A stretch of 64,000 bases of DNA from a virus. Below are positions 13,686-59,300 of this stretch, piece after piece. The notes under the pieces were generated by a model. That model had not been told where the DNA came from, did no database searches, and saw nothing but the letters and a program-made list of their open reading frames with translations. How positions within the stretch are numbered: position 1 is the stretch's first letter; each line of letters starts with the position of its first letter. The stretch is from positions 12,845 to 76,844 of the IMG/VR virus record IMGVR_UViG_3300037225_000466, one strand, 5' to 3'. A program made the translations under genes and the position numbers.

Positions 13686-13702
13686 TTGGCATAACGTTTG
13701 CT
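13686..13702 (+). promoter_or_regulatory. Sigma54 (-24/-12) promoter for the early operon
   Basis: TTGGCATAACGTTTGCT, exact GG-N10-GC spacing, 52 nt before the first early ATG. Confidence 0.6.
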
Positions 13703-13754
13703 TATTACTATAGTAACTAATTATTTTGTTTAATATTTTTAAAAGGACTGAATT

Positions 13755-13973
13755 ATGAAAGAAGTTAAATTGTTAGAAAATTACGATATTTGTACTTTTG
13801 AAAATCAATCGCAATTTATACGTTATGATTGGGAAAATATGTTTATTAATGAGGTTATCTTTATAGAAGACGACCAAAAGTCTGATTATAATCAAGTTGG
13901 ATATTTTCATGTCATTGCCTTTGCTATTAATTCTATTACTGACAATGAAGTAATCCTAAGAATAGCAAATTAA
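13755..13973 (+). CDS. Hypothetical early protein
   Basis: ORF track; AAAAGGA RBS. Confidence 0.6.
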   Translation: MKEVKLLENYDICTFENQSQFIRYDWENMFINEVIFIEDDQKSDYNQVGYFHVIAFAINSITDNEVILRIAN

Positions 13974-13979
13974 TTTTTC

Positions 13980-14030
13980 ACGTGGTTTAACTATTAGTAG
14001 TTAAGTAACTCATTATTACAAACCACGTCA
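13980..14030 (+). ncRNA. Three-way junction, degenerate tRNA-like element
   Basis: 9-bp outer stem acgtggttt/aaaccacgt; inner aacta-ttag-tagtt; gtaa-CTCATTA-ttac in the T-arm position. Confidence 0.45.
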
Positions 14031-14080
14031 AATAATAGCATTAAGCTATTTTATGTATAATTTATTTAAAAGGTCTCAAA

Positions 14081-14662
14081 ATGGAAAACTTAACAATTAA
14101 CAAAAAGTCTGTTAAAGACGAAATTGCAGAATTAGAGGAATTACTATTATCTCCATTAATGCAAAACGCAAAACAGGGCACATCATTATTTGTTCTCAAG
14201 GCAAGTTCAGAAAAAAGTCTCAATGCCTTAAAAGCTAAGGAACAAACGGAAATTTTAAACAATGGTTATTCTCAAAGTTTGTTTGAGTGTCTTTCTGTTT
14301 TCCATGAAGATTACCCAGAGCTTAAAATTACAGTAGAACAGATTAATAAAATGGTAGAGAAAGATAAAAATATTGCTCTTGGTGCAAAACAAATTTCTAA
14401 TGGTACGAAAATTAATACACCTATTAATAGCATTGAGTTTCTTACAATTACTAATGAGAAACAAGTTTTTGCAGGCGGTTATAATGCTGTCTATAAGCAA
14501 TTAGGCATTGATATTGAAAGTCTCAAGAGTGCAAACGGTAATTTTAAACCACAGGCAAGTGGCAATCCTAAGCTAAGGGAAGCACTTAGGGATTTAGGTT
14601 ATACGGAAATGACCGTAAATTATGAAAACGGTACTAATATTGTTATTGACTTGACTAAGTAA
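14081..14662 (+). CDS. Hypothetical early protein
   Basis: ORF track; aaaaggtctcaaaATG leader. Confidence 0.75.
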   Translation: MENLTINKKSVKDEIAELEELLLSPLMQNAKQGTSLFVLKASSEKSLNALKAKEQTEILNNGYSQSLFECLSVFHEDYPELKITVEQINKMVEKDKNIALGAKQISNGTKINTPINSIEFLTITNEKQVFAGGYNAVYKQLGIDIESLKSANGNFKPQASGNPKLREALRDLGYTEMTVNYENGTNIVIDLTK

Positions 14663-14669
14663 ATTTATT

Positions 14670-14706
14670 AGGTACGGTTTGCCCGTTGGTTTACCGTACC
14701 TTTTTT
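14670..14706 (+). terminator. Intrinsic terminator inside the early region
   Basis: aggtacggt/accgtacct stem followed by a T-run. Confidence 0.65.
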
Positions 14707-14820
14707 ATTCTCAAAATAACAAGTAATTAACTTTATTAGTCTTAACTAACAAATTTAGCCCTATACAAATGTATGGGTAAACAATTTTAAGAGCTTATAA
14801 GCTAAAAGGATTGGGTAAAA

Positions 14821-15090
14821 ATGAATGAAAATATAAAATTAATTGAACAATCTCCCTTTTATGTCATTAGGAATAAAAAGGGATTGTATCTTTTTAGAAT
14901 GGATGCATCTCCAAAGAATCGTTGGACTAAATCCTGGTCTTATGGATGTTATAGTTCGATTAGTCTTAAAGAAGCAATTGGCGATAAAAATGAGTTAATT
15001 TGTCAAATGATGGATAAAAGCAAACCGTTTATTTGTACTGTTAATTACTCGATTACAATTACTAAAACTAAATATCCGAAAAAGGATTAA
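14821..15090 (+). CDS. Hypothetical early protein
   Basis: ORF track. Confidence 0.6.
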   Translation: MNENIKLIEQSPFYVIRNKKGLYLFRMDASPKNRWTKSWSYGCYSSISLKEAIGDKNELICQMMDKSKPFICTVNYSITITKTKYPKKD

Positions 15091-15123
15091 ACCTAATTAG
15101 GATTCAGGTGAAAGAGAATCCTG

Positions 15124-15166
15124 GCGGAGCAAATGGTTGATGAGAGTTCGATTCTCTCCGCTCCCC
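15124..15166 (+). ncRNA. Anticodon-less mini-tRNA
   Basis: cggagca-aatggttgat-gagag-TTCGATT-ctctc-cgctccc-c. Confidence 0.65.
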
Positions 15167-15214
15167 TAATCAGCATTAAGCTGGATTTGGCAAATTTTAT
15201 TAAAAGGTCTCAAA

Positions 15215-16273
15215 ATGAATAAAGAAACTGCAATTAACAATTTTAAAGAACAAAAGATTAATCGTCGCTGGAAATCAGTGGATTGGAAATCCAATAGACT
15301 GTATTGCGAAGGCGATTATCTTTATTCCTATGGACATCACTTTTGCCTTGCTAAAAGGATGATTCGGGACGATAAACCGTTTTATTTGCTCAATGGTGAT
15401 ACGTATAGTTCGGAAACATCTAAACATCAATCCCATGTTTTAAGAGCTATGAAACCAAACGAACATACAATCGTATCGTTTACGGCTCTCCAGACAATCG
15501 GAGCAAACTATAAAGAAATTCAAGGCGATGATATTCTGGATTTCTCAGGAGCAAAAACAATGTTAATCCATTGGAAAAATGATAGGTATTATTTAGGTCT
15601 CAAAGGCAATAAACCTTTTGGCTCCAATCAACAAGGAATGCCAATCTGGGAAAAAATTGAAAAAGATTCCGAAGGAAAGATTATTCGTAAAGAAGGATAC
15701 TGGTATATCCTGGGCGGGGTGCTTATCAATGCAAATCTTTCTACCTTAGCTAAAATCGGTGATAGGGATTTTGAAAGACAAGTGAACTATAAAGCAAAAA
15801 TCTATTGTGGGATGGACGAACGGCAATATTTTATTGCTGAACTTAATCCTGATGAAAACTATTATATCGGCACAACTAATGAGGCTGTCAAATCCTTAAT
15901 GCCTTCACGTTTACGTAATGATACCGATTCTATTATCATTCGTCAAGGCGAATGGTTTTTTAGGAAAGTGGATTTTGACTTGGAAAAATTCAGAATCGAA
16001 AAGGGATTGAGTAAAACTAAACTTAATAAAGCTATAAAGTTTATTGAGTTACCACGTCGTAACGATAGAAGTTCAAGGCACGTTGTAAGAGCATTATATC
16101 CTGAGAATGGGATTAATGAAGGTTCTACACTTGTTACAGGAAAAGTGTATCATAAAAATTCATTCAATAATCTTGCAACAGGACAACACGCAATCGTAAA
16201 TTTAGATGGCTGGTTTCAGTTTTATCATAATACAGAAGTAAGAAGTGTATCGTCTCAAGGGAAAGTTGATTAA
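15215..16273 (+). CDS. Conserved phage early protein of unknown function
   Basis: YSYGHHF...YSSETSKHQS N-terminal motif and RQGEWFF C-terminal motif. Confidence 0.75.
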   Translation: MNKETAINNFKEQKINRRWKSVDWKSNRLYCEGDYLYSYGHHFCLAKRMIRDDKPFYLLNGDTYSSETSKHQSHVLRAMKPNEHTIVSFTALQTIGANYKEIQGDDILDFSGAKTMLIHWKNDRYYLGLKGNKPFGSNQQGMPIWEKIEKDSEGKIIRKEGYWYILGGVLINANLSTLAKIGDRDFERQVNYKAKIYCGMDERQYFIAELNPDENYYIGTTNEAVKSLMPSRLRNDTDSIIIRQGEWFFRKVDFDLEKFRIEKGLSKTKLNKAIKFIELPRRNDRSSRHVVRALYPENGINEGSTLVTGKVYHKNSFNNLATGQHAIVNLDGWFQFYHNTEVRSVSSQGKVD

Positions 16274-16317
16274 TCAGCAAAGGAATCAGGGGAGTTCGAT
16301 TCTCCCCGCTGATTCTA
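16272..16317 (+). ncRNA. Anticodon-less mini-tRNA
   Basis: atcagca-aaggaatcag-gggag-TTCGATT-ctccc-cgctgat-t-cta. Confidence 0.65.
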
Positions 16318-16347
16318 ATTATTTGTTTCAAATTTAAAAGGTCTACT

Positions 16348-16446
16348 ATGTATCCAATTATTTATTTATTGTGCCTTGTGGCGATTATGTTCGGGCTTGG
16401 ATGCCTCGCATATCCACAATGGACTAAGAAAGATGAGGGTATTTAA
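16348..16446 (+). CDS. Small membrane peptide MYPIIYLLCLVAIMFGLGCLAYPQWTKKDEGI
   Basis: Own translation; aaaaggtctactATG leader; abuts the next ATG. Confidence 0.6.
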   Translation: MYPIIYLLCLVAIMFGLGCLAYPQWTKKDEGI

Positions 16447-16881
16447 ATGGGATGGGATTTCTATACCGATAAGAAAATTACCAAAAAAATGGTAGTTAGA
16501 GAACTGTCAAACCAATCATTCAAATTAATGAATGGAACAAATTGCAAGGTGGTTGCATCTCGACTTGTGTATGATTCGACCGATGATAATACCTGTAATC
16601 ATTTATGGGTGGTTAAAGAAATTAGCGGGGTTAATGATAAGGGATTACGGATTGTTGATAACTATGTTATAGTCTTATATCTCCTTAAAAAAGAAAGTGG
16701 TTGTTGGGGATATAAAGGTATGGAGGAATCTTGCGAGCCGTTCTATTACGATTGCCCGTTAGAGTTTTTGGAATACGAACTAAATTATCATACTTGCCCA
16801 GATTGGCGTAAAGCTGTCAAGGCATATCATTTCCGCAAAAATCCATTAAGTGTGGTTTTAGAAGATAAGGAGGATTTATGA
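16447..16881 (+). CDS. Conserved mobile-element protein (DUF6927-like)
   Basis: MGW start; WGYKGMEESCEPFYYDCP...WR motif; family name recalled, not searched. Confidence 0.6.
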   Translation: MGWDFYTDKKITKKMVVRELSNQSFKLMNGTNCKVVASRLVYDSTDDNTCNHLWVVKEISGVNDKGLRIVDNYVIVLYLLKKESGCWGYKGMEESCEPFYYDCPLEFLEYELNYHTCPDWRKAVKAYHFRKNPLSVVLEDKEDL

Positions 16882-17153
16882 CACTCGCAGAACTAAAAAC
16901 AAATAATCCCCATTGGTTCAATCCTGAAAATCGCAGGATATTCGGGGATTTGGGTTACGGTCTCAAAACAGGTAAAAAATCAGGCAGTCAGTTTCTCGTA
17001 CAGAAAACTAATAAATGGTCTGATATGTTCGAAAAAGATAAGAAACGGATTTTCTTTGTTCTCCATCCTATTGTAAACGGGAAAATAGAAAGTGCTATCG
17101 AAGAAGATTTTTTCTCAATTAAAGAAGTTAAACAATATTTGAGGGATAAATGA
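16878..17153 (+). CDS. Hypothetical early protein
   Basis: ORF track; ATGA overlap. Confidence 0.65.
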   Translation: MTLAELKTNNPHWFNPENRRIFGDLGYGLKTGKKSGSQFLVQKTNKWSDMFEKDKKRIFFVLHPIVNGKIESAIEEDFFSIKEVKQYLRDK

Positions 17154-17335
17154 TGCACACTTATAATCTTACATTAATCGGCTCGGTGGTTTATGATAGA
17201 AATAATCATAAATGGATAGCTCAAAGAATCGGAAGAGTTATCAAATTTGAGTGCCTTGCCGATGCAAAAAGAGAAGCGGATTTACTGCTCAAGAAATTCC
17301 ACTGTTTAACTTATGATTTGTATAAAATTATTTGA
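17150..17335 (+). CDS. Hypothetical early protein
   Basis: ORF track. Confidence 0.55.
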   Translation: MMHTYNLTLIGSVVYDRNNHKWIAQRIGRVIKFECLADAKREADLLLKKFHCLTYDLYKII

Positions 17336-17345
17336 GGGATAAATA

Positions 17346-17555
17346 ATGCTAACTAAAAAAGATTTTCAAGGGATGGCTGTTGAAATTAAATCTTTAATTG
17401 CCAAAAATGCTTCTCCTGATTTTGTAGATGGCTATATTCGGGCTTGTGTGGATATAGCTGTCGAAAACCCAAACTTTAATGCAAAACGGTTTTATGATGC
17501 CTGTGGTATTGACGGCTATCCAGAAATAAGATATACAGGAGAAAGATATGACTAA
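17346..17555 (+). CDS. Conserved small phage protein (TKKDF...NPNFNAKRFYDACG)
   Basis: Motif common in early phage genes. Confidence 0.65.
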   Translation: MLTKKDFQGMAVEIKSLIAKNASPDFVDGYIRACVDIAVENPNFNAKRFYDACGIDGYPEIRYTGERYD

Positions 17556-17775
17556 TCTCGACAAAGCCGTTGATCATGCCCGCACTCTTCTCAAATCCCT
17601 TGAGTTTGGCAGTGCCTGTTTTAAAGCAGGTAAAGAGTTTAATGTGGATTCGGCAGAAATTGCTCGTGTCTTAGCTTCACACTCTGCAATGAAACGGAAA
17701 CGTACTTTTTCAGAGCAGGCGATTCTGGTTCGTGTAAAAAATGAAGTTGCAAACAAAGTAAAGGATTTAAGGTAA
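17548..17775 (+). CDS. Hypothetical early protein
   Basis: ORF track. Confidence 0.6.
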   Translation: MTNLDKAVDHARTLLKSLEFGSACFKAGKEFNVDSAEIARVLASHSAMKRKRTFSEQAILVRVKNEVANKVKDLR

Positions 17776-17960
17776 TGAAAAAATTTATTTTTAGCCGTGA
17801 ATATCTAAATGAATCCGAAGATGAGACTTGGGCGGATTTCGCCAAAGACCTTGAACAAGGTATCGAAGCTAATAAAGACGATTTCGATTGTGTCGAAGAG
17901 CCAATGGAAGATTGGGAAAATGAAATGTGGCATCAGCAAAAAGAGATGTATGAGGAGTAA
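17775..17960 (+). CDS. Small, highly acidic protein
   Basis: About one third D/E. Confidence 0.55.
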   Translation: MKKFIFSREYLNESEDETWADFAKDLEQGIEANKDDFDCVEEPMEDWENEMWHQQKEMYEE

Positions 17961-17967
17961 TCTCAAT

Positions 17968-18040
17968 GGTGATAATAGTTCAATTGGTAGAGCATCGGTC
18001 TGTGGAACCGAAGACGAGAGTTCAATCCTCTCTTATCACT
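17968..18040 (+). tRNA. tRNA-His(GTG), G-1 encoded, no CCA
   Basis: Acceptor gtgataa/ttatcac; D-arm gttc-aattggta-gagc; anticodon arm tcggt-ctGTGga-accga; T-arm gagag-ttcaatc-ctctc. Confidence 0.9.
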
Positions 18041-18085
18041 CTAATCCGCAAAAAGCGGAATTGTTAAACTTTTAAGGGTCGAGTT

Positions 18086-18421
18086 ATGAAAACAGAGTCA
18101 ATGCAAATCGTCGGAAAAGATATATATCCATTTTCCGAGAAAAGAACAGAATATAATTATCAGGTGGATTTGTCTATCAAACCAGAGATGGTGGAAATAT
18201 CGATTTACGATTCCAAGGGCAATTTGCTTCATGGCAATCTCCCTGCAATCGGACTTCGCAATGCAGAGCAAACCGCAGAACGATTACTTAATAAAATTAA
18301 GTTCAATCAAAAGTTCCTTCACTTCGATGATAAACTTATGAATGTGGAAAGTGCTTTCAGAATGGAAAGGGATTTCGTATATGGGATTTCGTTCGATTTT
18401 ATCAAAAGGAGGTCTGCATGA
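18086..18421 (+). CDS. Hypothetical early protein
   Basis: ORF track. Confidence 0.6.
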   Translation: MKTESMQIVGKDIYPFSEKRTEYNYQVDLSIKPEMVEISIYDSKGNLLHGNLPAIGLRNAEQTAERLLNKIKFNQKFLHFDDKLMNVESAFRMERDFVYGISFDFIKRRSA

Positions 18422-18798
18422 AATCTCAAAAACAAAAAGCACTCGAAGCGATAGACGAACTAATCAAAAGATATTCCACAGGTAAGACTTGGGTGAATTG
18501 GGGTGACGGGGCAAGCTGTCCACTGTGCCAAATCTATCTACTGAAAAATAAAGACATGGATTCTTGCAGGGGTTGCCCAATGGCAAATAAGGAGGGCGGG
18601 CACGGCTGTATCATACATAAAACATGGATGGATTTACAGGATGCCTATGTGGGTATTTGGGGAGAATTTGAAACTCCTTTAATTTTTACACGAGCTAAAG
18701 CATTAAAGAAATTTAAAAAGTTAATCGAAAATGAACCAGCTAAAAAATTCACGGTCAAAGGTTGGACGTTCTTTAAACAAAATAAAAAGTTTTATTAA
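18418..18798 (+). CDS. Cys-rich hypothetical protein (CPLC...CRGCP...C)
   Basis: ORF track; metal-binding motif. Confidence 0.65.
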   Translation: MKSQKQKALEAIDELIKRYSTGKTWVNWGDGASCPLCQIYLLKNKDMDSCRGCPMANKEGGHGCIIHKTWMDLQDAYVGIWGEFETPLIFTRAKALKKFKKLIENEPAKKFTVKGWTFFKQNKKFY

Positions 18799-18803
18799 TA
18801 ATC

Positions 18804-18871
18804 GGGTGGTCTTGGAGGATAATGTTACAGACCTTTCGTTATCAAATGGTTCAATTCCATTTGCCACCCCA
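18804..18871 (+). ncRNA. tRNA-like RNA lacking a D-stem, with an aberrant anticodon arm
   Basis: gggtggt/gccaccc acceptor; cttggag linker; gataatg/cgttatc stem with 12-nt loop; aatgg-TTCAATT-ccatt T-arm. Confidence 0.6.
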
Positions 18872-18914
18872 ATCCGCATTAAGCGGGCAAAAGGTCAAAT
18901 TATAAGGAGAGATC

Positions 18915-19238
18915 ATGAAAGTCTATGCTTTAGAAAATGGAGACCCTTACGATCCTCAGGATACGCCATTATGGTCAGTGGTGCGAGATGAAGACGGCAA
19001 GACCTTTTCTATCCACACCTTCGGGGTGAATATAGAAAAAGGGGAAGAAATCGAATGTGAATATGTTTGTGAACTCACTATGGATGAAATGATTGAATTT
19101 ATCAGCAGGCTGAATAAGGTCTATTTCGGCGGGATAAATACGTATGACGACAGAATGTTTAATCTTGTTGCGGTGATGGCGAGACCAGGAAACAATCCAC
19201 CGCCAGAGGATTTCGGAGGGGTGCAGGTGAATGTATGA
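18915..19238 (+). CDS. Hypothetical early protein
   Basis: ORF track; AAGGAG RBS. Confidence 0.65.
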   Translation: MKVYALENGDPYDPQDTPLWSVVRDEDGKTFSIHTFGVNIEKGEEIECEYVCELTMDEMIEFISRLNKVYFGGINTYDDRMFNLVAVMARPGNNPPPEDFGGVQVNV

Positions 19239-26914: not shown

Positions 26915-27073
26915 ATGAAAGTCATAAAGGTAACGAAAGAGTATTTTCAGACAGAGGACGAGAAGGTTTATTTCTTCGAGCCTTTGGAAAAAGAAATATC
27001 CGTTGAGGATATGCAGAAGATTGTGGATGCAAACGAGAAATTAGTTAAGGAGTTGAAAGATGCCAAAGATTGA
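26915..27073 (+). CDS. Small hypothetical protein MKVIKVTKEYFQTEDEKVYFFEPL...
   Basis: Own translation; AAGGAG RBS. Confidence 0.65.
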   Translation: MKVIKVTKEYFQTEDEKVYFFEPLEKEISVEDMQKIVDANEKLVKELKDAKD

Positions 27074-27209
27074 ACTGATACAGGGCAATTGCTTGGAGAA
27101 AATGAAGGATATTCAAGATGGGAGTGTGCAGTTGGTTTTTACCTCACCACCTTATAACATGAGAACAAGAATTAGAAATGGGAAATATACTACTAGAGAA
27201 AGGAGATAA
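27060..27209 (+). pseudogene. Truncated beta-class amino DNA methyltransferase (N-terminal 49 aa)
   Basis: MPKIELIQGNCLEKMKDIQDGSVQLVFTSPPYN then stop; AAGGAG RBS. Confidence 0.75.
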
Positions 27210-30344: not shown

Positions 30345-30716
30345 ATGGAACAATCGATTAACGAACTATCAATTAATGGGAAAATCTATGTTCCCAAAGA
30401 TTCAATCCAAAACAAGGTAACTGATACAAGCGGGTTGCCTTATGTTATGTGTAGGACTCATACAGCCGGAGTTTTTGCAGGATATCTAAAAGAACGTAAT
30501 GGTAAAGAAGGTATTTTGTTAAATGCCCGTAGGATATGGTATTGGGACGGAGCGGCTTCATTATCTCAATTGGCTACCGAAGGAACAACTAATCCTTCAA
30601 ATTGTAAATTTCCATGTGAAGTAAGCGAAGTAACGTTAACAGAAATTATTGAAATTATACCAATTACAGAGGTAGCTAAAAAGAGTTTAGATAAGGTGCC
30701 AATATGGAAACAATAA
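30345..30716 (+). CDS. Conserved phage protein (DUF6948-like)
   Basis: VMCRTHTAGVFAG...ARRIWYWDGAASLSQLA; family name recalled, not searched. Confidence 0.75.
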   Translation: MEQSINELSINGKIYVPKDSIQNKVTDTSGLPYVMCRTHTAGVFAGYLKERNGKEGILLNARRIWYWDGAASLSQLATEGTTNPSNCKFPCEVSEVTLTEIIEIIPITEVAKKSLDKVPIWKQ

Positions 30717-30943
30717 AAGATGGCTCTGGCTCTGGCTCTGGCTCTGGCTATGGCTATGGCGATGGCTATGGCTATGGCTCTGGCTCTGGCTCTGACTCTG
30801 GCTCTGGCTATGGCTATGGCGATGGCTCTGGCTTTGGCTCTGGCTATGGCTCTGGCTATGGCGATAGCTCTGGCTATGGCTCTGGCGATGGCTCTGGCGA
30901 TGGCTATGGCTCTGGCGATGGCGATGGCTCTGGCTATGGCTAA
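30704..30943 (+). CDS. Gly-X (X=S/Y/D) repeat peptide, copy 1
   Basis: METIKDGSGSG...; hexamer repeats TGGCTC/TGGCTA/TGGCGA. Confidence 0.6.
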   Translation: METIKDGSGSGSGSGYGYGDGYGYGSGSGSDSGSGYGYGDGSGFGSGYGSGYGDSSGYGSGDGSGDGYGSGDGDGSGYG

Positions 30944-30983: not shown

Positions 30984-31157
<174 letters not shown>

Positions 31158-35952: not shown

Positions 35953-38900
35953 TTACTTATTTTCCAAAAAATACTGCAAATTAATATTTGGCTTGTTCGA
36001 CTTCCTATATCTTACCTGCACCCCGCTCTCAGACTGCTTTTCGTAAGCGGACTGGACTGCCATTGCTTCATATTCTCTTCTCACCGCACTTTTTGCTCCC
36101 TCAATTACCTTCTTAAATTCAACGTCCGAGGTCCCTGGCGTTTGGTAATTTTCGCTGGGGTGGATTTTGGAATATAATTCCTGCCTGAATGTCGGGTCGT
36201 CTAATTTATCATCAATCTCCTTGATTTTTGCTTTGTATTCATCTTTGGTCTCTTTCCATGCGTCGATAATATCGTTCTTTAATTTATCAGCATTGAGGAT
36301 TGGCTTTCCGCCCTCTTGTTCGTTTGCGAGAAGTTCTCTCTCGGCTGAGTCCTTATTCCTCTTTACTCCGTCTACTATAATTTCTACCCCTCCAACTCCG
36401 AGAGTCTTCTTGATGTACCGTGCCTGTAAGGCTGGAGTGTTTGTGGGATTTTTGTCCTCTCTCATTAACTCGGCTTCCCATTTTTGGTGCAGTGGCTTCC
36501 CAAGCCCGACATCCTGCAAAGCGTTGTACCATTTATAGTCTCCTGTCGGAGCACCTTCCTTATCGAGTTTTTTGCCTCCCGAAAGATTAAAGTATGCTTC
36601 AATTCCTCTCTGTGCTACTGGCGGGACGATCCCTCCCTGTGTCAAAGCTCCCCACAGTTTCTGAGAAACACTCTTATTGCCGTCGGAAACTTCATTGATA
36701 ATTTTTATAATAGAACTTAACATAAAAGGATTCCCGATTTGCCCTAAAACATCATGTAGGCTGAAATCCCTGTCCATTAACATTGAGAGTACATTGTATT
36801 CAGTTGCCTGCCTTAAGCTCTTTGCAAGGGTTCTGTCGATTCCGACTTTCTCTAAGCCGTTTTCTATATGTCTCCAGATTGCCTCGGTCCCTGTTTCTTT
36901 AGTCACACTCGGTTCATCTTTATTGTCTCCTCCTATTTGTCTCAGACCGTCATAAAGAATCCCTAATGCTGGCAAAGCCCTAACTCCGTGCATGAACATT
37001 CTTAGAAAAGACCTTGTTGTGAAATCTACAATGCCTCCAGCTTTTAACGGGTCAGCATGAAGAGCTTTCTGTGCCTCAATTAAGTAATGCCTGAAATTAT
37101 TAGCCGTCGGTAAAAAGAATTTGGTTATAGGAGCTAAGAGTTTTTGGTTTCTTATACCCTGTACGATTTTAGTTGTGTTTGAAGGTGTGAAACTTCCTTG
37201 TGCTTCGGCAATCCCAGAAATAACCTTATTCTCAATTTCTCTAATATACTGTTCCTCTGTGAGCCCGCTTCCTTCAAATGGATACTTAGCCATTAAAGCC
37301 TTCCGCATGACTATCGCTCCGACCTCTCTGCCGTTTCTCCATGCCTGCTTGGGCAACCAGAGCATTGCGTTCTGTACACCTCTTTGCAGGTTTGGGGTGT
37401 GCTCGCTTCTGAATAAGTTATCCGCTATTGTTTGACTCTGCATAACTCTACTGTCAATTTCTTTCTCTAATGAGTTTTTAACATTAATATCAAATGTTGG
37501 AGCCTTTAATTTTCCGAGCATTGATTTTATTTGTGCGGGTACGCCTTCCCAAATCGGAACGAATGTCGGGAGACCGTTGGACTTTAATAAATCAATAGTA
37601 TTCATTAGCACACCTTCAAGATGCCTTGCGTAGGTATTAGCATTGAAAGTTAAAGCCCCTGCACCTATCCAGTTAGAACCGCCTTGTACCCATCTGCCAG
37701 GGTCGTATACGCTACCGTCAGCCGTGGTAATTGTCCCCTGCCCTATTAATTGCCCAAAAGGGTTTACTCTTGGGGTTTGCTGGGCTTGCCTTGCCTGCTC
37801 TTCGAGCCACCTGTTATGCCTGTTTATTCCAGTCTCTTTATTGTTGATGGTCTCCAATAACTGCTTCTGTGCGGTTTTTGAAGTTGCATTTCTTTGTAAC
37901 TTATCGTACTGCCTTAAATTCTCGTGCTCCATGTTATTGTAATGAGCAACCACTGCCTTCTTGGGGCTCATTTCAGTATGAGTAAAGGCATAGTTTGGAG
38001 TGGGCTGTTCTATTGACTGTCTGCTTGAAAGCCTGTGGATTAAATTCGTGAACCTGTCGCTGTCGCCACTTTTTATAATCTCATTGACTTTGTCTATTTG
38101 CTCAGGTGTCATTCCTTCAAGTTTTTTAATGGTCGGTTCGTCGAGCTCAGACTTCCCGCCTCTGCTTACATATCCTAAAAGAACATTAGCATTTCTTTCG
38201 TTCTGGTTTAAACGATAAGGCATTTCCGTAGGGACGAAAGATTTGACTTCGACTTCGACCTTTCTCGGTTTCCCAGTTGCTGGGTCAATAGGAGTATCAA
38301 CTATTTCGCCTCGGTGGTTGTACATTTTATCAACTGTACCCTTGGCGTTGATTAACTTATCTTCGTTTCGGCTTCCCTCTGTTGGTTCAAATCCCAGTTT
38401 CTTTAATTCGGCTACATCGTTTTTTAGCATTTCTTTTCTGGTTTTATAGCCTTTGTGAACCCTTATTAAAGATTCTTCGGGTTTAACTCCAGCCTGCCTT
38501 ATATCCATTTGCCACTGATTTCCGCCACTGTTTAATTGAGGTATATAGTGGTCTGCTTCGCTGGTTTTCTGGAATCTGTCGTAATCAGCAAGATAACTAA
38601 CATCCTTTTTTAACTGAGCAATTTCTGATTTATAAGGACCAGCTTTGTCGGCAATCTGAGTCTTGATTTCTACATTTGCTTTCTTTAACTCCGCCATCCT
38701 TATTTTAATCTTAACGGGGCTCGCTTCGTTGTCGGTTGCAAGACGAATCTTTAACTTCTGCAACTCAGCATTATTCTTCTTGAAAGTTTTATTCTGGTCT
38801 GAGACCCACTTTTCTCTCTGAGACTTTACTTTCTCTAAAGCGGGCTTTGTCTCAGTGTCGATTTTCTTCTGGAGTTCGTCTCGACTAAGTAGTTTTTCTC

Positions 38901-41900
38901 CGAAAATAGAGTTATCAATTTGGAAGCGAGTGTTCTCGTTGTGGAGATTCCTCAATGCCTGATAACCGCTATACGCTTTCTCTGGGTCGAGCCCTAAATG
39001 AGCAAGCTCTGCCTTGATATTCGCTTCGGAAGTTATCCCTGCTTTCACCGCCGCCAAACCTTCTATTGCATCTTTATAGCGAAGCGGAGAAAGATTGCCC
39101 GCCTTCCTTTGGTTTGCAAGGCTTCTCTCTGCGTTTTTGACTTCGTTTATTGCGTGGAAGATATTTTGGTTAGCCTGTATGATTTTGCCAAAATCCTCGT
39201 GGCTGTAATTTTTGCTTAATTCTCCGTATAATTCTGCGGTTTTTGCATTGTGTATCCCAAAGGTTTTTTCTGGATAAACAAAAGTGTTCCAAGAAAATTC
39301 GCTTTCTTTTCGATTCAAAAGGGTCTTGAAATTATCAGGATTATAATGATTATTTTTATTAAAATTTGAGAGCATGGAATATTTTGAATTTGTCCTATCA
39401 GGCTGTTGCTCTTGCATCCCTTTGTTAACTTCACCTGCTGGAGTATTTTTGAAATACTCGTCTAAAGCACTGAGCTTTTTGCCTGTTTCGTGGGGCTTAG
39501 TCCCTCTGATTGATTTATAGACCTGTTTTATCCCTTCGGGGATATTGGCAGGGAAGGAATAAAGTAAACCCGAAAATGAGCCTTCGTTATTTTTTGCTAT
39601 CTCTGAATTTTTTGTAGCTTTTTCTACGCCCAAAGCCTCGGAAGGTATATCTAATTTATTATTTTTATATAAATCATCCATCATTTTATATAATTCTGGA
39701 TGAGCTTTAAACACCTCTTTCGCTATATTCAAAACGTTTTTATGCACTATGTTGGGATTTTTTACTATATGATACATCGATATAGCATTAGCCAGTCTTT
39801 CTTCTGCCAATTTATATATATTAGCTTTCGGTGCGTTTATATCCAAACTAATATCATTATATCCCTTTGGGAATACTTTTTGCAAGTACTTTATCCAGTC
39901 TTTCTTTATGTTTACATAGAGTCCATTTATCTTCCCACTTGAAATTTTATGTGAAATAGCATGCCCAAATTCGTGCATTAAAACATCAGCATTAGGCGAG
40001 CTTACTATGTTGCCATCATAGTGGGGCCATTCATTGTTAGAGATTTTTATATTACCTACAAGACCCCCATATTTATCCAAACTTGGAATTATTTTTCCTA
40101 TATCGGTACCCTTTATATTTTGCCCTACCTTTAATCCTGTCGGTCTATCGGGTTTATTAGCCGCAAGTCTTGCTCGTTTTTCTTCTAATGCCTGCCCTTC
40201 TCGAATCTTCATTTCTTTTTTATATCGCTTTAACTCTTCGTCAGACATCGGCTCACCTACCAAAATAGGCATATCTGGTTCACTTTTTTGTTTTAATGAT
40301 TTTTCCTCTTTGGTGGTACCAATAGCTACTTCACTTTTTTTTTCAGTTTTATCTATTATTCTCCCCGTTTCAGGCGGGTTCGCCGAACCTTTTTTAAGTT
40401 TTTCTTCTGTATAAGGTTTGATTAAACCCTTGCCAACTTTGTTGTTAAAGAAATTAGTTCTATCCCTTAAACTAACAACCCCATCTTTATCGATTGTGAG
40501 ATACACATCTTTCGGGAGTAAGTTAGTCTGGATTACCGAAGCCCCGTCCCCTCTGGGTCGAATTGCATTTTGTATTTGCTCAATATCCTTTTGCAAATCT
40601 GGGTCAATTCTAACTTTATTCGCAATTATATTGGGATTCTCTTCTATTGCCTTTTTGTCAATATAAGTTTCTTTGGCTGAATCAAAAGGTTTTGTAGCCG
40701 TTTCGAGTTTTCTGGATTCGTTCTTTGCTAATAATTGAGGAGACTCTACTTTTGGAGGTTCGGTTTTTTGAGTCGCCACTTCTTGTTTAGAAGGCTTGCC
40801 TTCAATCGCACTCTCTTGTTCAAAAGATTTCTTATTCTCTGATGGAGGGTACACTTTCCTCCCTTGTTCATCTCTTTGGTATATATCTGTTGCTTCAGCC
40901 TGTGGCTCAGAAACGGCTTCTGCCTCTGGTTTGACCGTTTCTATTGGCTTTGGAGTTTCGACGGCTCCTACGGGCTGCAATTCCTTTAAATCTGGACTTG
41001 CCTCAATCATGGTTTTTATCTTCTGCATTTTTTGTGCGGAAGTCATGCCTTGCGTTTTTCCTAATAATGGTGATCGGGTTCCATCGATGTCTTTGTGATT
41101 CTGGAGACGCCTGATTACGGTTTCTGGGGTCTCATTGGTCATAAGGTTTGAATAACGGGTGTTGACCGCTGCCTGCCTTAGAGCCTTTTCGTCGGGAGTC
41201 GTTTCTCCTTTTAAGTCTTTGGTGTTTATATCACTGATAGTTTCATTCACATTCTCATCTGGCATTACAGGTTTGTTGTTCATCCAGTCAGAAACAAATT
41301 TGCCGAATTCTTCGGGAGTGTCTGGAAGCCTTTGATTGATTTTTTGAAACTGAGCTTCCATATATTTATGACCTTCGGGATTTGAAGTGTCTAAATAAGG
41401 CTTAATTTTATTCCCGTTTGCGTCTTTAGTTATCTTTTCTCCGTTTGGAGCGTCAAAATAATTTTTTATACCGTATTTTTCCACAACTTCTGGGTGGTCA
41501 GCTTTTACATTATTAAGGTCAGCTTTTGAAATATTATCAGAAACATCAAAAGCTACATTTTTCTTCTCCTCTGGAGTGTAGGAATCAACAGGTCTGCCTT
41601 TTTCTGTATAACTCTCATTCGGGACGTCGGAAATTGGTGCTGAAAGTGCGGGAGTTGTTGGCGGTGCTTCATAACTTGGATTCGGAACTTCCTGCCCCGC
41701 TTTTGCCTTTTGTGCGACCATCATGTTCAAACGGTCAATTGCATCAGGGTCGTTTTCTATGACTTTTTTGTAGCCTCGGAAGAAATTGTCCATTTTCTTA
41801 ATTTTGCTTGCAGGCATTTCAGATATGTTAGTATAAGGCTTCCCGCTCTTGTAAGAATTTTGGAAATCCGTATAAAGATTATCTTTGGCAGTTTGCCCAG

Positions 41901-43221
41901 CTTTATCACCGTTTGCCTTGGCTTCCGCCATCACGTCATATACTCTTGCCTTCCATACGTCGGCATCAGTCCCGAAATCTTTGCCCGCCGCAATCCTCGC
42001 TTTTACCATCGGCAAGTCCATAGCTGTAAACATTACCGTTTGCAAAGCTGTGCCTTTTATTACGTTTTGCCAGTAATCACTCCAGCCATTTGGTGTTTTC
42101 CCTTCAAGAACATTGAAAGTCTCTGTCGCCGCAGTTGAAGGTAGAGAGATTGCCGCTGACTTTAACGCCGATTTCCATATTGCCTTCGGAATAGTATTTG
42201 TAGGGTCAGCCCAGATATTATGAGCTCCCTTTATAAATAATGCGTTCGTCATATAATCGACTGCGGTTTTAGCCAACGCCCCAGTTGCGGTAGATTTTTG
42301 GTCAAGAGCATCCTGTACATTCCCTATTGCCTGTGGGATAGTAAGTGCCGTGCTTGTGCCTATTGTGCCGAGTCCCGCCCCGCCTGTTGCCGCACCGATT
42401 GCTATTGCACCCGCTATATCGCTTGCCATCTGACCATATTGCCTGAGACTATTCTCGCCCGATGTCCCCTCTTTTAAAACTTCGGGTCTCACTACATTTT
42501 TTTGCTGAGTAATTAAATTCTGAATTTTATTGACTATATCCTCATAAGGATTCTGAACCCCCGTGAAAGCACCAGTAGTTCCAAGCGGAGTCCGTGCTTT
42601 TTGAGTTAATTGTTCGTTGGTCTGCGGGGCAACCATATTAATAATAGCATTTAATCCCGCAGTTGTTGCCTGCATCCCTGGCGTGATATTATTGACCACA
42701 TCCAATCCTGTAGTTGCCCAGTCTGGGAGTCCAAGGGTTTGAGTTATCCTATTTGAAATATCTTGCCCATATTTTATAGGTTTAGTATCACCATTATCGA
42801 CTTGCATAAAAGGCAGTTTTTCTGTTTTTATACTCCCGTCTAAATCTTTGTAGGTTCTATAAACTTTACCTGAATTAACCCCATCTGGTTGATACTGCAC
42901 CGCACCCTGATTCATCCATCTCATAATATTATCAGGAGTGTAGGCAACATTAAAATTGATATTAGGGTCAGGTTGATATGCTGACGGTTTATATTGAGCT
43001 AAACTATTTATCTTTTGTTGCACCTGCGAAGTTGTAGGTGTTAAAGAACCTGTGACCCAATCGGCAACGGGTTTGACCACCTGCGTTGCCATATTGGTCA
43101 TATTATTGAAAGTCTTACCTAAATCATCAAACCAGCTTCCGCCGTTGGATTGGGCGGGAGTTTGCGGTTGCTGATTTTGCTGGGCTTGATATTCGTCGCC
43201 GCCCATCCATTTATTACCCAT
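35953..43221 (-). CDS. Giant internal virion/ejection protein (large polyvalent protein-like) with zincin motif
   Basis: 2422 aa; Gly/Ala-rich helical region; LMHEFGHA...EERLAN; last gene of the ejection cluster. Confidence 0.7.
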   Translation of the reverse strand: MGNKWMGGDEYQAQQNQQPQTPAQSNGGSWFDDLGKTFNNMTNMATQVVKPVADWVTGSLTPTTSQVQQKINSLAQYKPSAYQPDPNINFNVAYTPDNIMRWMNQGAVQYQPDGVNSGKVYRTYKDLDGSIKTEKLPFMQVDNGDTKPIKYGQDISNRITQTLGLPDWATTGLDVVNNITPGMQATTAGLNAIINMVAPQTNEQLTQKARTPLGTTGAFTGVQNPYEDIVNKIQNLITQQKNVVRPEVLKEGTSGENSLRQYGQMASDIAGAIAIGAATGGAGLGTIGTSTALTIPQAIGNVQDALDQKSTATGALAKTAVDYMTNALFIKGAHNIWADPTNTIPKAIWKSALKSAAISLPSTAATETFNVLEGKTPNGWSDYWQNVIKGTALQTVMFTAMDLPMVKARIAAGKDFGTDADVWKARVYDVMAEAKANGDKAGQTAKDNLYTDFQNSYKSGKPYTNISEMPASKIKKMDNFFRGYKKVIENDPDAIDRLNMMVAQKAKAGQEVPNPSYEAPPTTPALSAPISDVPNESYTEKGRPVDSYTPEEKKNVAFDVSDNISKADLNNVKADHPEVVEKYGIKNYFDAPNGEKITKDANGNKIKPYLDTSNPEGHKYMEAQFQKINQRLPDTPEEFGKFVSDWMNNKPVMPDENVNETISDINTKDLKGETTPDEKALRQAAVNTRYSNLMTNETPETVIRRLQNHKDIDGTRSPLLGKTQGMTSAQKMQKIKTMIEASPDLKELQPVGAVETPKPIETVKPEAEAVSEPQAEATDIYQRDEQGRKVYPPSENKKSFEQESAIEGKPSKQEVATQKTEPPKVESPQLLAKNESRKLETATKPFDSAKETYIDKKAIEENPNIIANKVRIDPDLQKDIEQIQNAIRPRGDGASVIQTNLLPKDVYLTIDKDGVVSLRDRTNFFNNKVGKGLIKPYTEEKLKKGSANPPETGRIIDKTEKKSEVAIGTTKEEKSLKQKSEPDMPILVGEPMSDEELKRYKKEMKIREGQALEEKRARLAANKPDRPTGLKVGQNIKGTDIGKIIPSLDKYGGLVGNIKISNNEWPHYDGNIVSSPNADVLMHEFGHAISHKISSGKINGLYVNIKKDWIKYLQKVFPKGYNDISLDINAPKANIYKLAEERLANAISMYHIVKNPNIVHKNVLNIAKEVFKAHPELYKMMDDLYKNNKLDIPSEALGVEKATKNSEIAKNNEGSFSGLLYSFPANIPEGIKQVYKSIRGTKPHETGKKLSALDEYFKNTPAGEVNKGMQEQQPDRTNSKYSMLSNFNKNNHYNPDNFKTLLNRKESEFSWNTFVYPEKTFGIHNAKTAELYGELSKNYSHEDFGKIIQANQNIFHAINEVKNAERSLANQRKAGNLSPLRYKDAIEGLAAVKAGITSEANIKAELAHLGLDPEKAYSGYQALRNLHNENTRFQIDNSIFGEKLLSRDELQKKIDTETKPALEKVKSQREKWVSDQNKTFKKNNAELQKLKIRLATDNEASPVKIKIRMAELKKANVEIKTQIADKAGPYKSEIAQLKKDVSYLADYDRFQKTSEADHYIPQLNSGGNQWQMDIRQAGVKPEESLIRVHKGYKTRKEMLKNDVAELKKLGFEPTEGSRNEDKLINAKGTVDKMYNHRGEIVDTPIDPATGKPRKVEVEVKSFVPTEMPYRLNQNERNANVLLGYVSRGGKSELDEPTIKKLEGMTPEQIDKVNEIIKSGDSDRFTNLIHRLSSRQSIEQPTPNYAFTHTEMSPKKAVVAHYNNMEHENLRQYDKLQRNATSKTAQKQLLETINNKETGINRHNRWLEEQARQAQQTPRVNPFGQLIGQGTITTADGSVYDPGRWVQGGSNWIGAGALTFNANTYARHLEGVLMNTIDLLKSNGLPTFVPIWEGVPAQIKSMLGKLKAPTFDINVKNSLEKEIDSRVMQSQTIADNLFRSEHTPNLQRGVQNAMLWLPKQAWRNGREVGAIVMRKALMAKYPFEGSGLTEEQYIREIENKVISGIAEAQGSFTPSNTTKIVQGIRNQKLLAPITKFFLPTANNFRHYLIEAQKALHADPLKAGGIVDFTTRSFLRMFMHGVRALPALGILYDGLRQIGGDNKDEPSVTKETGTEAIWRHIENGLEKVGIDRTLAKSLRQATEYNVLSMLMDRDFSLHDVLGQIGNPFMLSSIIKIINEVSDGNKSVSQKLWGALTQGGIVPPVAQRGIEAYFNLSGGKKLDKEGAPTGDYKWYNALQDVGLGKPLHQKWEAELMREDKNPTNTPALQARYIKKTLGVGGVEIIVDGVKRNKDSAERELLANEQEGGKPILNADKLKNDIIDAWKETKDEYKAKIKEIDDKLDDPTFRQELYSKIHPSENYQTPGTSDVEFKKVIEGAKSAVRREYEAMAVQSAYEKQSESGVQVRYRKSNKPNINLQYFLENK

Positions 43222-56307: not shown

Positions 56308-59300
56308 TTAACTCTCTGATAATTCTGGATTAATTGGATCGGGTAAATGATAGGTCACTGGCAAAACGTCAGCACTTCTCATCTCACCCAGTGAATTAGT
56401 ATAATAAAGCCTTACCATTTGCCTGCCCTCTGAAATTTCTGAAAGTTTCGTGTCTCCGTCATGCTTGGCGGGATTTTTCGGGTACTCGAATTTAGTCGCA
56501 TATTTTTTATTTAGACCTACTACATAAATATTCCCATTCATAACTCTTTGTTTGCCGTATTCCTCCTGTAAGTCAATTATTGCGGGAACATTCAGATAAA
56601 GTTCGTCGTAGTATTGGTTGTATCCGCAGGAAGCGTCTCTGATTGAATCAGAGTTTACATTTAAAACAAATTGAAGCTCCTCGTTAAATAATTGGTCGGC
56701 TGCTTCGAGAGAATTCCCGTCGAACTTCATTAAACCTTTCCAACTCAAAAAATAAAGTACATTGTCTATATTTATAAGAGTATTCGGTGCGATACAACCT
56801 ACGTTATCGCTAATTTTGTCCATTCTTTCGATTATCGGGCTGTCTTGTTTTATAAGCAATCTATAAAGCGAATGGCTCTTAAATACTAAAATATTCCCGT
56901 ACTGAATCTCCATTCCTGTAATTTCGTCGCCGTCCCCGCTTCCTACTTCCCAGATATTTTCAAGTCTTATTACATCAGGTTTCATCGGGTCAGAAGCACA
57001 AATCCCAGATTTATAGTCCGTGATTTTTGGTACTGGTTCTTCTAAGAGCTTACCCGAAGGAAGATAGTCGTCAACAAAAACTCCTTCGTTATATTGAGTT
57101 TGATTTGAGGGATTCAAGTCTTTGATTTCGCCGATATAGTAGTATTTATCATCATCATTCCTTGAACCGCATAACCTTATAGTGGCTTCATCTGGTGACA
57201 CGACTTCCGTTGTGACTTGGTCGCTGTATCCATCAGAAGTAAAAATATTACCGTTTGTAGAATTTTCCCCGTATGGGCTCCCGTTATAAATAACACTTCC
57301 TTTTGTCACCCTGTATTTTAATATTTCTTGCGGTATAGTCGCAGGGGTGTCTGATTTAACGCTTATATCTATTCCTGCATAACTATTGATATTTCTGTAA
57401 ACCTGTATTCTCTCAACGTAATCCGTGTAAGACGACGGCATTAAATAAAGAATTGAAACTAAAGGTAATCCCATATCTTTGTAAGAGGAGCCGTTAGCTA
57501 CGGAGGCGTGCCCAGATGTGTTTGACGGTATTATTGAAGGCGTAAAATTTCTCGCTACTTCTGAGAGCACGCCATTCACATCTTCATATATATATTTATA
57601 TAGAATATTGATATATTCGTCATCCCAATTGTAACCCTTATCGTTATTGGAATCGAGTACAATGCAACTCGTCGAAGGCACTATCCCTACTGGGTTATCC
57701 CCTGTAAAACCGTAATTTTCTTTAGGCTGGAGAGGCTGCCATGTCTGCAAAAGATTAGCGTAAAATATTATCTCATAGAGGCTAAGATTAAATCTTGACT
57801 TCAACGCTACTCTTAAAGCATCGGTCTCATTTGAATTGTACCCGAAGTCCAAGGCGTTGTCTTTTATCTGGTCGAAGTAATAAAAGCCTTTATGATAATG
57901 TCCCCAATCAGTAGGGTTGTCTTTATCGCAATAGAAAGCCTCTCCACCATAGAATTTATTCGGGTCTCCATCTGGTAACCCTGCTTGCTGTAAAAATTCA
58001 GGGTCGTCTTTTCCAATGTTATATCTTCTTATATCCACACTCGCTACTAAACCATATTCGTGCGGGTCGAAGTCATTTGCATGGGAACACTTCGTTCTGT
58101 AAATCAAAAGTTTCTTTGCCCTGCGAGGTACATCTGTGTCGCCTATCTGAATACCGAGTCTCGGTGCTCCGAACAATAAAGAACTTGGGAAGTAAGCGGT
58201 GATTTGCTCGGTTCCTGTGAAACGCTGGGCGTCGGTGGAGAAAACCGTAATATCAACATTGTCGACAGCGTCATATTTTTTAATCGCTATCATCCTCGCA
58301 GTGTCATCTCCCTGCACTGCATAATTAGAATAGACCGCAATACCTTCCCTTAGGTTTCTATGGAGTGAGCTATAATGAGTAATATCATTTATTCTCCCGT
58401 CTCCCCTATCCAGCCTCTCAACATACTCGTAAGAAGCACCTACCGACTGAATGGAAGAGCTGTCAAAGTCTATTTTACTACCATTTTGCACAATAGGTAT
58501 TTCGCAACAACCGTTTAATATCAATCTATTTATGACTTCTTGCGGGATATCGCTACTCACCACACTATTTAATTTATCGCTTTCATTTTTTATACCCCTT
58601 ATTATCTCAAATGGTCTGATTTTATTTAACTGCACCCCTGTAAAAGTCCCGACATAATCGTCTGTATCGACATTGTTATTCGTGTCCTCTGGTATGCTTA
58701 TTATATTTATATAAATATCCGAAGAATCCCCACTATAATTTGCCGTCAAAACATTATAGTACTGCAACCCTTCAATTATCGAGTCGTCGTTATTTAAATA
58801 ATTATTCACCTTATTCCCGCCTACGATTTGAGGAAAGTATGGATACCATACATTTGGAGTAGTGTTGTCATTGAAATTATCAGCTAATGCAATATTATAA
58901 ATCTGCGACCCTACTCCAATGTGATGCTTTTCAAATACCAATCTAATGTTTTTGCAATTATAATTGATAGTCATATAATTAGAGGTTAATTGCGATATGA
59001 CCTCTCTTGAATATCCATGTCCGTAATAGTCCCTATATAGCAGCCTTAGTCTCCCCTCGTCGTCAAACAAAGAATTTTGCGTAATATCTTTTATCGACTG
59101 GAATATTGGGACTACTATTTTTCCGAATCCATATATTATATGTTTATCTATTGTTCTATAGATGCTGTCACTTGACAAATCTGCTATCCAACTATCCTTC
59201 CACTTCTTATCCCCACTCACTCCATCATTATAGGCAACTCCAGCCCCTTCCCAAACAAATCCTTTTAATTCAAGATTTGTACTTGAAAAAAACATTGTTG

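Follow-up and report, generated by a model that had tools for sequence, protein, structure and literature searches.

What is the role of a small hairpin that recurs between structured RNA elements and the start codons of early genes in an uncultured phage? The phage is represented by virus record IMGVR_UViG_3300037225_000466 (76,844 bp, with direct terminal repeats), which occurs in peat metagenomes, and the window analysed here, a stretch of 64,000 nucleotides (nt) whose coordinates are used throughout, corresponds to positions 12845-76844 of that record. Its block of small plus-strand open reading frames (ORFs), none with an assigned function, extends from 13755 to about 33.6 kb, and the hairpin family occupies the first 5 kb. 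We find that these hairpins are a real, non-random and strand-specific RNA family. What they do is less certain: we tentatively favour, at a strength falling just short of probable, a role as the 5'-terminal stabiliser or insulator of the downstream mRNA, exposed by an endonuclease cut at a (C)UAAU linker.

An earlier sequence-only reading of this DNA had described four main hairpins, all of which were borne out by direct reading and by a scan of the whole genome:

Hairpin A, 14034-14050, plus strand: aatagc-ATTAA-gctatt, 6-bp stem, loop AUUAA, -4.6 kcal/mol.
Hairpin B, 15171-15183, plus strand: cagc-ATTAA-gctg, 4 bp plus a U-G pair, loop AUUAA.
Hairpin D, 18045-18059, plus strand: tccgc-AAAAA-gcgga, 5 bp, loop AAAAA, -7.6 kcal/mol.
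Hairpin E, 18874-18886, plus strand: ccgc-ATTAA-gcgg, 4 bp plus a U-G pair, loop AUUAA.

The variant it had put forward as a fifth member was not counted by us, because its stem has 3-4 bp (-2.8 kcal/mol), its loop is a different one and no spacer precedes AAAAGG:

Doubtful fifth copy, 14792-14803, plus strand: agc-TTATAA-gct, a perfect palindrome whose weak stem abuts AAAAGG.

To quantify the family, the motif class was defined, after the data had been seen, as GC-A[AT][AT]AA-GC with at least four Watson-Crick pairs. The class is found neither equally on both strands nor in coding regions: the 76,844-bp genome carries four copies on the plus strand and none on the minus strand, and all four are intergenic. 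Dinucleotide shuffles of the genome gave a mean of 0.24 copies for both strands together. All four copies (4/4) are located within 704 nt of early intergenic sequence, and shuffling these 704 nt yielded even a single copy in just 18 of 20,000 trials. The 9-mer GCATTAAGC has three occurrences genome-wide, each on the plus strand and in the early region, and no hairpin of this kind was found in the non-coding leader of any other gene in the genome. Three other phage genomes (150 kb in total) contained one motif copy altogether. This excess over chance is too large for the post hoc definition of the class to matter.

Aligning the four copies showed that every cell of the stem is paired (16/16). 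The two loop-closing pairs are invariant, and the outer two of the four aligned pairs change on both sides (A-U/C-G and U-A/C-G), in line with the earlier description of stems that vary with pairing kept while the closing pairs and an A-rich loop stay constant. For the segment from linker to ATG, RNAalifold returned the hairpin as the sole consensus structure, and the stability of the hairpins is moderate, ranging from -4.6 to -7.6 kcal/mol. Three DNA runs were all identical to the window and offered no natural variants by which to test the covariation. The hairpins do not look like intrinsic terminators: no U-tract follows B, D or E, and a terminator scan lists none of the four (0/4).

On their 5' side, the hairpins follow stable folds, from which they are separated by short linkers. 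A fifth fold of this series has a trailer and no hairpin:

Element A, 13980-14028, plus strand: long plain hairpin with a 9-bp basal stem (ACGTGGTTT/AAACCACGT) and no T-loop; z = -3.1 for the fold of the whole spacer.
Linker CAAAU, 14029-14033, plus strand: between element A and hairpin A.
Element B, 15123-15166, plus strand: tRNA-like, with the canonical T-arm GAGAG-TTCGATT-CTCTC at 15142-15158.
Linker UAAU, 15167-15170, plus strand: between element B and hairpin B.
Mini-helix C, about 16282-16319, plus strand: 13-bp acceptor and T-arm with loop TTCGATT, followed by a CUAAU trailer and no hairpin.
tRNA-His (GTG), element D, 17969-18041, plus strand: 67.5 bits to RF00005, G-1 present, CCA not encoded.
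Linker CUAA, 18041-18044, plus strand: after U73 (18040) of tRNA-His.
Element E, 18804-18870, plus strand: tRNA-like, with a 7-bp acceptor stem GGGTGGT/GCCACCC and the T-arm AAATGG-TTCAATT-CCATTT.
Linker AAU, 18871-18873, plus strand: between element E and hairpin E.

Scanning the whole genome for T-arms (5-bp stems around a TTCRANN loop) identified four canonical ones (G-C closed, GTTCRAYYC), all on the plus strand and all in the early region, at 15142, 16290, 18016 and 18845; three further matches, at 40952 (plus), 39458 (minus) and 21444 (minus), are not closed by G-C. Acceptor stems that stack on a T-arm with a UUCRANY loop are present in C, D and E, partly in B and not in A. The claim that the hairpins come after tRNA-like elements thus stands for B, D and E (3/4) and fails for A, which is preceded by a long plain hairpin without a T-loop. 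In element E, a single central hairpin replaces the D and anticodon arms, and ARAGORN in mitochondrial mode calls it a D-armless tRNA. The acceptor-like stem of element B is ambiguous in register (either 4 bp stacked on the T-stem or 6-7 bp, GGCGGAG/CTCCGCT), and an 8-bp hairpin at 15098-15123 precedes the element. Apart from tRNA-His, Rfam returned nothing, even at E-values up to 10. Element A begins 6 nt after the stop codon of ORF 13755-13973, and mini-helix C sits upstream of a 32-codon membrane-peptide ORF (16348-16446); the mini-tRNA reported at 16272 to have no such hairpin corresponds to this mini-helix (about 16282-16316), which indeed has none. An attP or tRNA-fragment origin of the elements was dropped, since C and E have complete acceptor stems.

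The layout common to these junctions is a stable fold that starts 0-32 nt after a stop codon, the sequence C-N-A-A-U and, in four of five cases, the hairpin; the C-N-A-A-U trailer lies 3' of all five structured elements, mini-helix C included. Each of the four hairpins starts 2-5 nt past the last paired base or the discriminator of the upstream fold. Downstream, the spacing is equally regular, with about 14-18 nt from the hairpin end to the Shine-Dalgarno site and 27-32 nt to the start codon when counted to the A (26-31 nt before ATG). From the end of hairpin A, it is 17 nt to AAAAGG (14068-14073) and 30 nt to the ATG at 14081; the corresponding distances are 18 nt (AAAAGG, 15202-15207) and 31 nt (ATG at 15215) for hairpin B, and 14 nt (AAGGG, 18074-18078) and 26 nt (ATG at 18086) for hairpin D. 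For hairpin E, the values are 17 nt to AAGGAG (18904-18909) and 28 nt to the ATG at 18915. The AAAAGG/AAGGG leaders described earlier are therefore present, with a correction for copy E: its AAAAGG lies 2 nt past the hairpin, and AAGGAG, which restores the common spacing, is probably the Shine-Dalgarno site that is used. We also considered a pseudoknot in which the UAAU linker would pair with the AUUA of the loop, and discarded it because it is unlikely on steric grounds and missing from copy D.

Three unrelated early genes have nearly the same leader (14068-14083, 15202-15217 and 16336-16350), AAAAGGTCTCAAAATG in the first two cases and AAAAGGTCTACTATG in the last, and the 8-mer AAAAGGTC is also found directly 3' of hairpin E. 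The hairpin could have no function of its own and have been carried along as a passenger when a whole junction cassette of structure, hairpin and leader was duplicated and spread by recombination among the early genes, as with the promoter-stem-loop cassettes known from T4-type phages. AGCAUUAAGCU and the 16-nt leader TTAAAAGGTCTCAAAATG are common to copies A and B, as AAUCCGC...GCGG is to copies D and E, which suggests two pairs that arose by duplication; at mini-helix C, the trailer and leader recur and the hairpin does not, and short conserved junction blocks are good substrates for recombination. However, the stems have stayed paired in 16 of 16 cells through two-sided changes in two pairs, whereas the spacer between hairpin and leader has diverged freely, and neutral drift predicts a loop that changes at least as fast as the stem. 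We therefore regard a mere passenger as unlikely.

How could such a junction work? In the processing model that we tentatively favour, the host polymerase would make the early genes as long transcripts, in which four gene junctions would present the stable fold, a short single-stranded A/U linker, (C)UAAU, and the small GC-closed hairpin. A host endonuclease would cut within the linker or at its start, the candidates being RNase Z, acting after the discriminator of the tRNA-type folds, and one of the RNases E, G and Y, acting within the A/U linker. The fold on the 5' side would then shield the 3' end of the upstream piece or leave as a tRNA, and the hairpin, with 2-5 unpaired bases ahead of it, would become the 5' terminus of the downstream mRNA. 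In this position, it may hinder 5'-end-dependent decay, either by the exonuclease RNase J1 or by RNase E stimulated by a 5'-monophosphate. It may also prevent the leader from mispairing with the tRNA-like fold, so that the A/U spacer of about 16 nt and the Shine-Dalgarno site stay open; an open ribosome site is suggested because RNAalifold predicts no other shared structure. 5'-terminal stem-loops protect mRNA only when few unpaired nucleotides lie ahead of them, as in the leaders of Escherichia coli ompA and Bacillus subtilis ermC and aprE, and the 2-5 nt at the phage junctions would respect this limit. A 5'-protective hairpin on the mRNA released at a tRNA-like element had also been among the suggestions of the sequence-only reading, and it provides the best anatomical fit, as judged by the spacing, the tRNA-His without CCA and the fixed distance to the ATG; the individual cuts and stabilising effects are what we infer from it.

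Copy D is the strongest argument for processing. A functional tRNA has to be excised at both ends from an operon RNA, after which CCA is added. The gene for tRNA-His has neither a promoter nor a terminator of its own. Because it also does not encode CCA, a 3' cut would be needed, and the mRNA of ORF 18086 would then start at or just before hairpin D. If the processed end lies no more than a few bases from 18041, hairpin D, which begins four bases later, would form the 5' terminus of this mRNA. A cut on the far side of hairpin D would give the tRNA a structured trailer that stands in the way of its 3' trimming. The like trailer and spacing at A, B and E suggest that the same cutting event takes place there.

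Several observations weigh against this model. The covariation evidence is modest in strength, as the copies form similar pairs, A/B and D/E, so that only about two compensations would have arisen independently. A fixed loop is not required of a generic stabiliser, but three copies have the same AUUAA and the same two closing pairs. In a stabiliser, stem changes would be tolerated as long as pairing is kept; here, the outer pairs covary, and the loop and closing pairs are conserved beyond what this class needs. The stems are short and, at the stabilities given above, weaker than classical stabilisers, and mini-helix C has the trailer without a hairpin. Moreover, the action of RNase P or RNase Z is uncertain at B, an imperfect tRNA mimic, and at A, which is no mimic at all. 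The sole run from an RNA library contributes three contigs at a depth of about 2, and contigs can neither show ends nor exclude DNA carry-over; one of them (17972-18183) starts 3 nt inside tRNA-His and bridges hairpin D into ORF 18086, from which, at a depth of 2, we conclude nothing. Finally, the clues to the host, and with it to the set of RNases, diverge. The primase is closest to those of Bacteroidota phages, a Shine-Dalgarno site precedes 58% of long ORFs against a background of 12%, unlike in the Bacteroidota-type relatives G003 and G004, and homologues of the glycosyltransferase are scattered across Bacillota and Bacteroidota.

The conserved apex points to other possibilities. A phage or host protein may read the AUUAA or AAAAA loop together with the two closing pairs and thereby control translation, stability or elongation of the cistron, an explanation we consider possible and give clearly less weight than processing. 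A loop and closing pairs that are nearly invariant on a covarying outer stem are the usual signature of apex recognition, a short GC stem capped by an A-rich pentaloop has the general look of boxB, and the constant distance to the ribosome site would fit a translational operator. On the other hand, none of the early ORFs could be assigned a function by Pfam or PHROG, none has an arginine-rich motif or belongs to a known RNA-binding family, and the loop of copy D, AAAAA, differs from AUUAA at two of five positions. Within the processing model, the two ideas could be combined, in that the GC-AUUAA-GC apex would be the dock of a dedicated factor, either an early protein or an adaptor of a host RNase, that couples the cut at each tRNA-type element to stabilisation or translation of the next cistron. 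The phage would thereby layer a 'leader-cap' system on tRNA punctuation and leave copy C, which has no hairpin, deliberately unprotected. We think this reading rather unlikely.

A special case of protein docking is antitermination of the boxB/N type, which the sequence-only reading had placed first among its suggestions. An intrinsic terminator does lie inside the operon, downstream of hairpin A, as that reading had stated and as direct reading confirmed:

Intrinsic terminator, 14670-14706, plus strand: 9-bp basal stem and U6, after ORF 14081-14662.

This and the general likeness to boxB speak in favour of antitermination. In contrast, the loops (AUUAA in three copies, AAAAA in one) do not have the leading G of the GNRA-like boxB fold, and no boxA was found: the best match to CGCUCUUA, judged by eye, reaches 6/8, occurs in copy D only and consists of the tRNA acceptor strand and trailer. 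The placement is also wrong for boxB, with one hairpin per gene at a fixed distance from the ATG instead of one per operon after the promoter; there are four copies in 5 kb, and three of them lie downstream of the only clear terminator. A recognisable or arginine-rich antiterminator is missing, too. No early ORF exceeds 5 Arg per 20 residues, and a density of 6 was found in one short ORF of the middle region (27060-27209). Antitermination of this type is therefore very improbable at best, and we set that part of the earlier reading aside.

Could the element instead act as DNA? The early promoters of phage N4 are small hairpins with conserved loops and variable stems, and an extruded hairpin promoter of this type, or a site for a DNA-binding or recombination protein, would be an alternative at the DNA level. 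Besides the likeness to N4 promoters, the 27-32 nt before the ATG would be a sensible leader length, and the phage encodes two giant proteins of 2422 and 1871 aa without an assigned function. However, neither giant protein has T7-like or double-psi-barrel polymerase motifs or matches a solved polymerase, a very divergent enzyme aside, and no polymerase is found among the remaining annotated proteins of the genome. Stems that vary are not expected of a double-stranded operator, a DNA-level role gives no reason why the hairpins should be so closely tied to the 3' ends of tRNA-type folds, and a host-type promoter is present upstream of the operon. Because the motif occurs four times on the plus strand and never on the minus strand, its stems covary and its loop is non-palindromic, action at the RNA level and on one strand is indicated, and we judge a DNA-level element quite improbable. 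The two giant ORFs belong to the structural region (2422 aa, 35953-43221, minus strand; 1871 aa, 56308-61923, minus strand), and neither has a Pfam or PHROG family. In comparisons with PDB, the larger had no significant match, and the smaller matched the small protein XoxI weakly (E = 6e-4, residues 1020-1115).

The host-type promoter is part of an AT-rich control region, behind which the early block opens at a strand switch. Upstream of the first early gene, TGGCAT-AACGT-TTGCT at 13687-13702 matches the sigma-54 -24/-12 consensus (GG-N10-GC), and this stretch overlaps a sigma-70-type promoter match (TTGGCA-17-TATAGT, 13686-13714). The gene content is otherwise that of a phage, with a portal, a terminase, a head protein, collagen-like fibres and a primase-helicase. 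Towards the end of the small-ORF block, two adjacent ORFs (30704-30943 and 30984-31157) have the N-terminus METIKDGSGSG in common and are preceded by near-identical leaders; the remainder of both consists almost entirely of Gly/Ser/Tyr/Asp repeats.

We also asked whether the junction recurs elsewhere. When IMG/VR was scanned with one protein at a time, the 352-aa early protein, the glycosyltransferase and the portal each detected no relative, and a scan with the primase-helicase detected relatives of 25-39% identity only. A blastn comparison of 7.6 kb with cultured phages gave nothing, and among 5.8 billion proteins the best full-length identity to the 352-aa protein was 29%. Judged from these comparisons, the phage appears to have no close relative in IMG/VR, among cultured phages or in the large protein collection. 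The pattern GCATTAAGC...AAAAGGTC had 118 matches in IMG/VR, none of them after a T-arm, and a composite pattern of T-loop, AAT and hairpin had 26, none with a paired T-stem. In metagenomes, the composite pattern gave at least 120 matches; among the matches listed, 44 had a paired T-stem, and most of these 44 were ordinary bacterial tRNAs in which CCA-AAU and a terminator fit the pattern by chance. Stem extension was not enriched. At one metagenomic locus (L175), the order is tRNA-His-CCA-AU-tagcAAAAAgcta-33 nt-ATG, which is suggestive and yet indistinguishable from chance, and at another (L272) the tRNA-Ala of a bacterial rRNA operon is followed by CAGC-AUAAA-GCUG and is uninformative. L175 itself, a 2107-bp contig, is phage-like and carries seven tRNA genes, including one of the amber-suppressor type (anticodon CTA), interleaved with small ORFs; for several of the tRNAs, the next start codon comes about 20-25 nt after the 3' end, and its tRNA-His is followed by a tagc-AAAAA-gcta hairpin. 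Other viral loci (1.29 Mb) contained no tRNA and hence provide no background rate for hairpins after tRNAs.

The distant phage G005 (58 kb), which uses Shine-Dalgarno sites, has three T-arm elements, at about 3619 and 3864 (plus strand) and 57113 (minus strand) (see also locus L127, 1262-1600), each followed by a hairpin. Two of these hairpins are short and GC-rich with loops of 5-6 nt, and one has a 7-bp stem and a 9-nt loop. At one of the elements, a stop codon, a mini-tRNA, a 4-bp GC hairpin, GGAGG and an ATG follow each other, and the hairpin ends 27 nt before the ATG; this recurrence of the whole layout counts in favour of the processing model. One of the three T-arm elements scored 28.3 bits against the tRNA model, just below the cut-off. 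Because the loops in G005 differ, AUUAA would be specific to the phage studied here. In the literature, we found no paper describing a hairpin module after tRNA elements in phages.

Phage early operons are usually assumed to be controlled at promoters and terminators. If the processing model is true, a compact junction module, composed of fold, A/U linker, capped hairpin and open ribosome site, would set the stability and yield of each early message by recruiting host nucleases of tRNA processing or mRNA decay. This would extend tRNA punctuation from organelles to phages, with a defined 5'-protective part added, and it would provide a small portable element of about 25 nt for tuning the stability of cistrons in synthetic operons. 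The conserved loop offers a means to separate structure-only from protein-bound roles.

How does the junction compare with known systems? In B. subtilis cggR-gapA and at the RNase E sites of T4 gene 32, operon processing leaves a 5' hairpin on a stabilised downstream mRNA. In Staphylococcus aureus saePQRS, a downstream duplex directs RNase Y to a site 6 nt upstream of it, and cutting there stabilises the downstream fragment (PMC5449607). The phage junctions resemble saePQRS in having a single-stranded A/U intergenic segment directly before a stem-loop, with a putative cut a few nucleotides before the duplex and a downstream product that would start with the structure. They differ in that the hairpin has 4-6 bp instead of the 24 bp of the sae duplex, and in its conserved loop, its four copies and the tRNA or tRNA-like fold on its 5' side. 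With tRNA punctuation, as in the mitochondrial model and the plant t-elements, the latter described as end-forming signals of mitochondrial mRNAs (PMC1920247), they share a true tRNA and acceptor/T-arm mimics between protein genes as well as possible cuts by RNase P or RNase Z. Here, the setting is a bacteriophage operon, an extra conserved hairpin comes after the element, and one of the four junctions uses a plain hairpin. The nut sites of lambda and P22 are alike in their short GC stem, their A-rich five-base loop, their place in an early phage transcript and the terminator downstream, and unlike in that the hairpins described here have no leading G in the loop, no boxA, no N-like arginine-rich protein and four copies spaced from start codons. 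In T7, early RNase III sites cut polycistronic RNA into stable pieces, and the PeSL cassettes of T4 travel between genes as regulatory units. Both are, like the junctions here, structured elements between early phage genes, but the stems in the present phage are too short for RNase III, and no sigma-70-type promoter lies 3' of its hairpins. What is new here is most likely the joining of a known operon-processing logic to tRNA-type punctuation, with an extra 5' hairpin.

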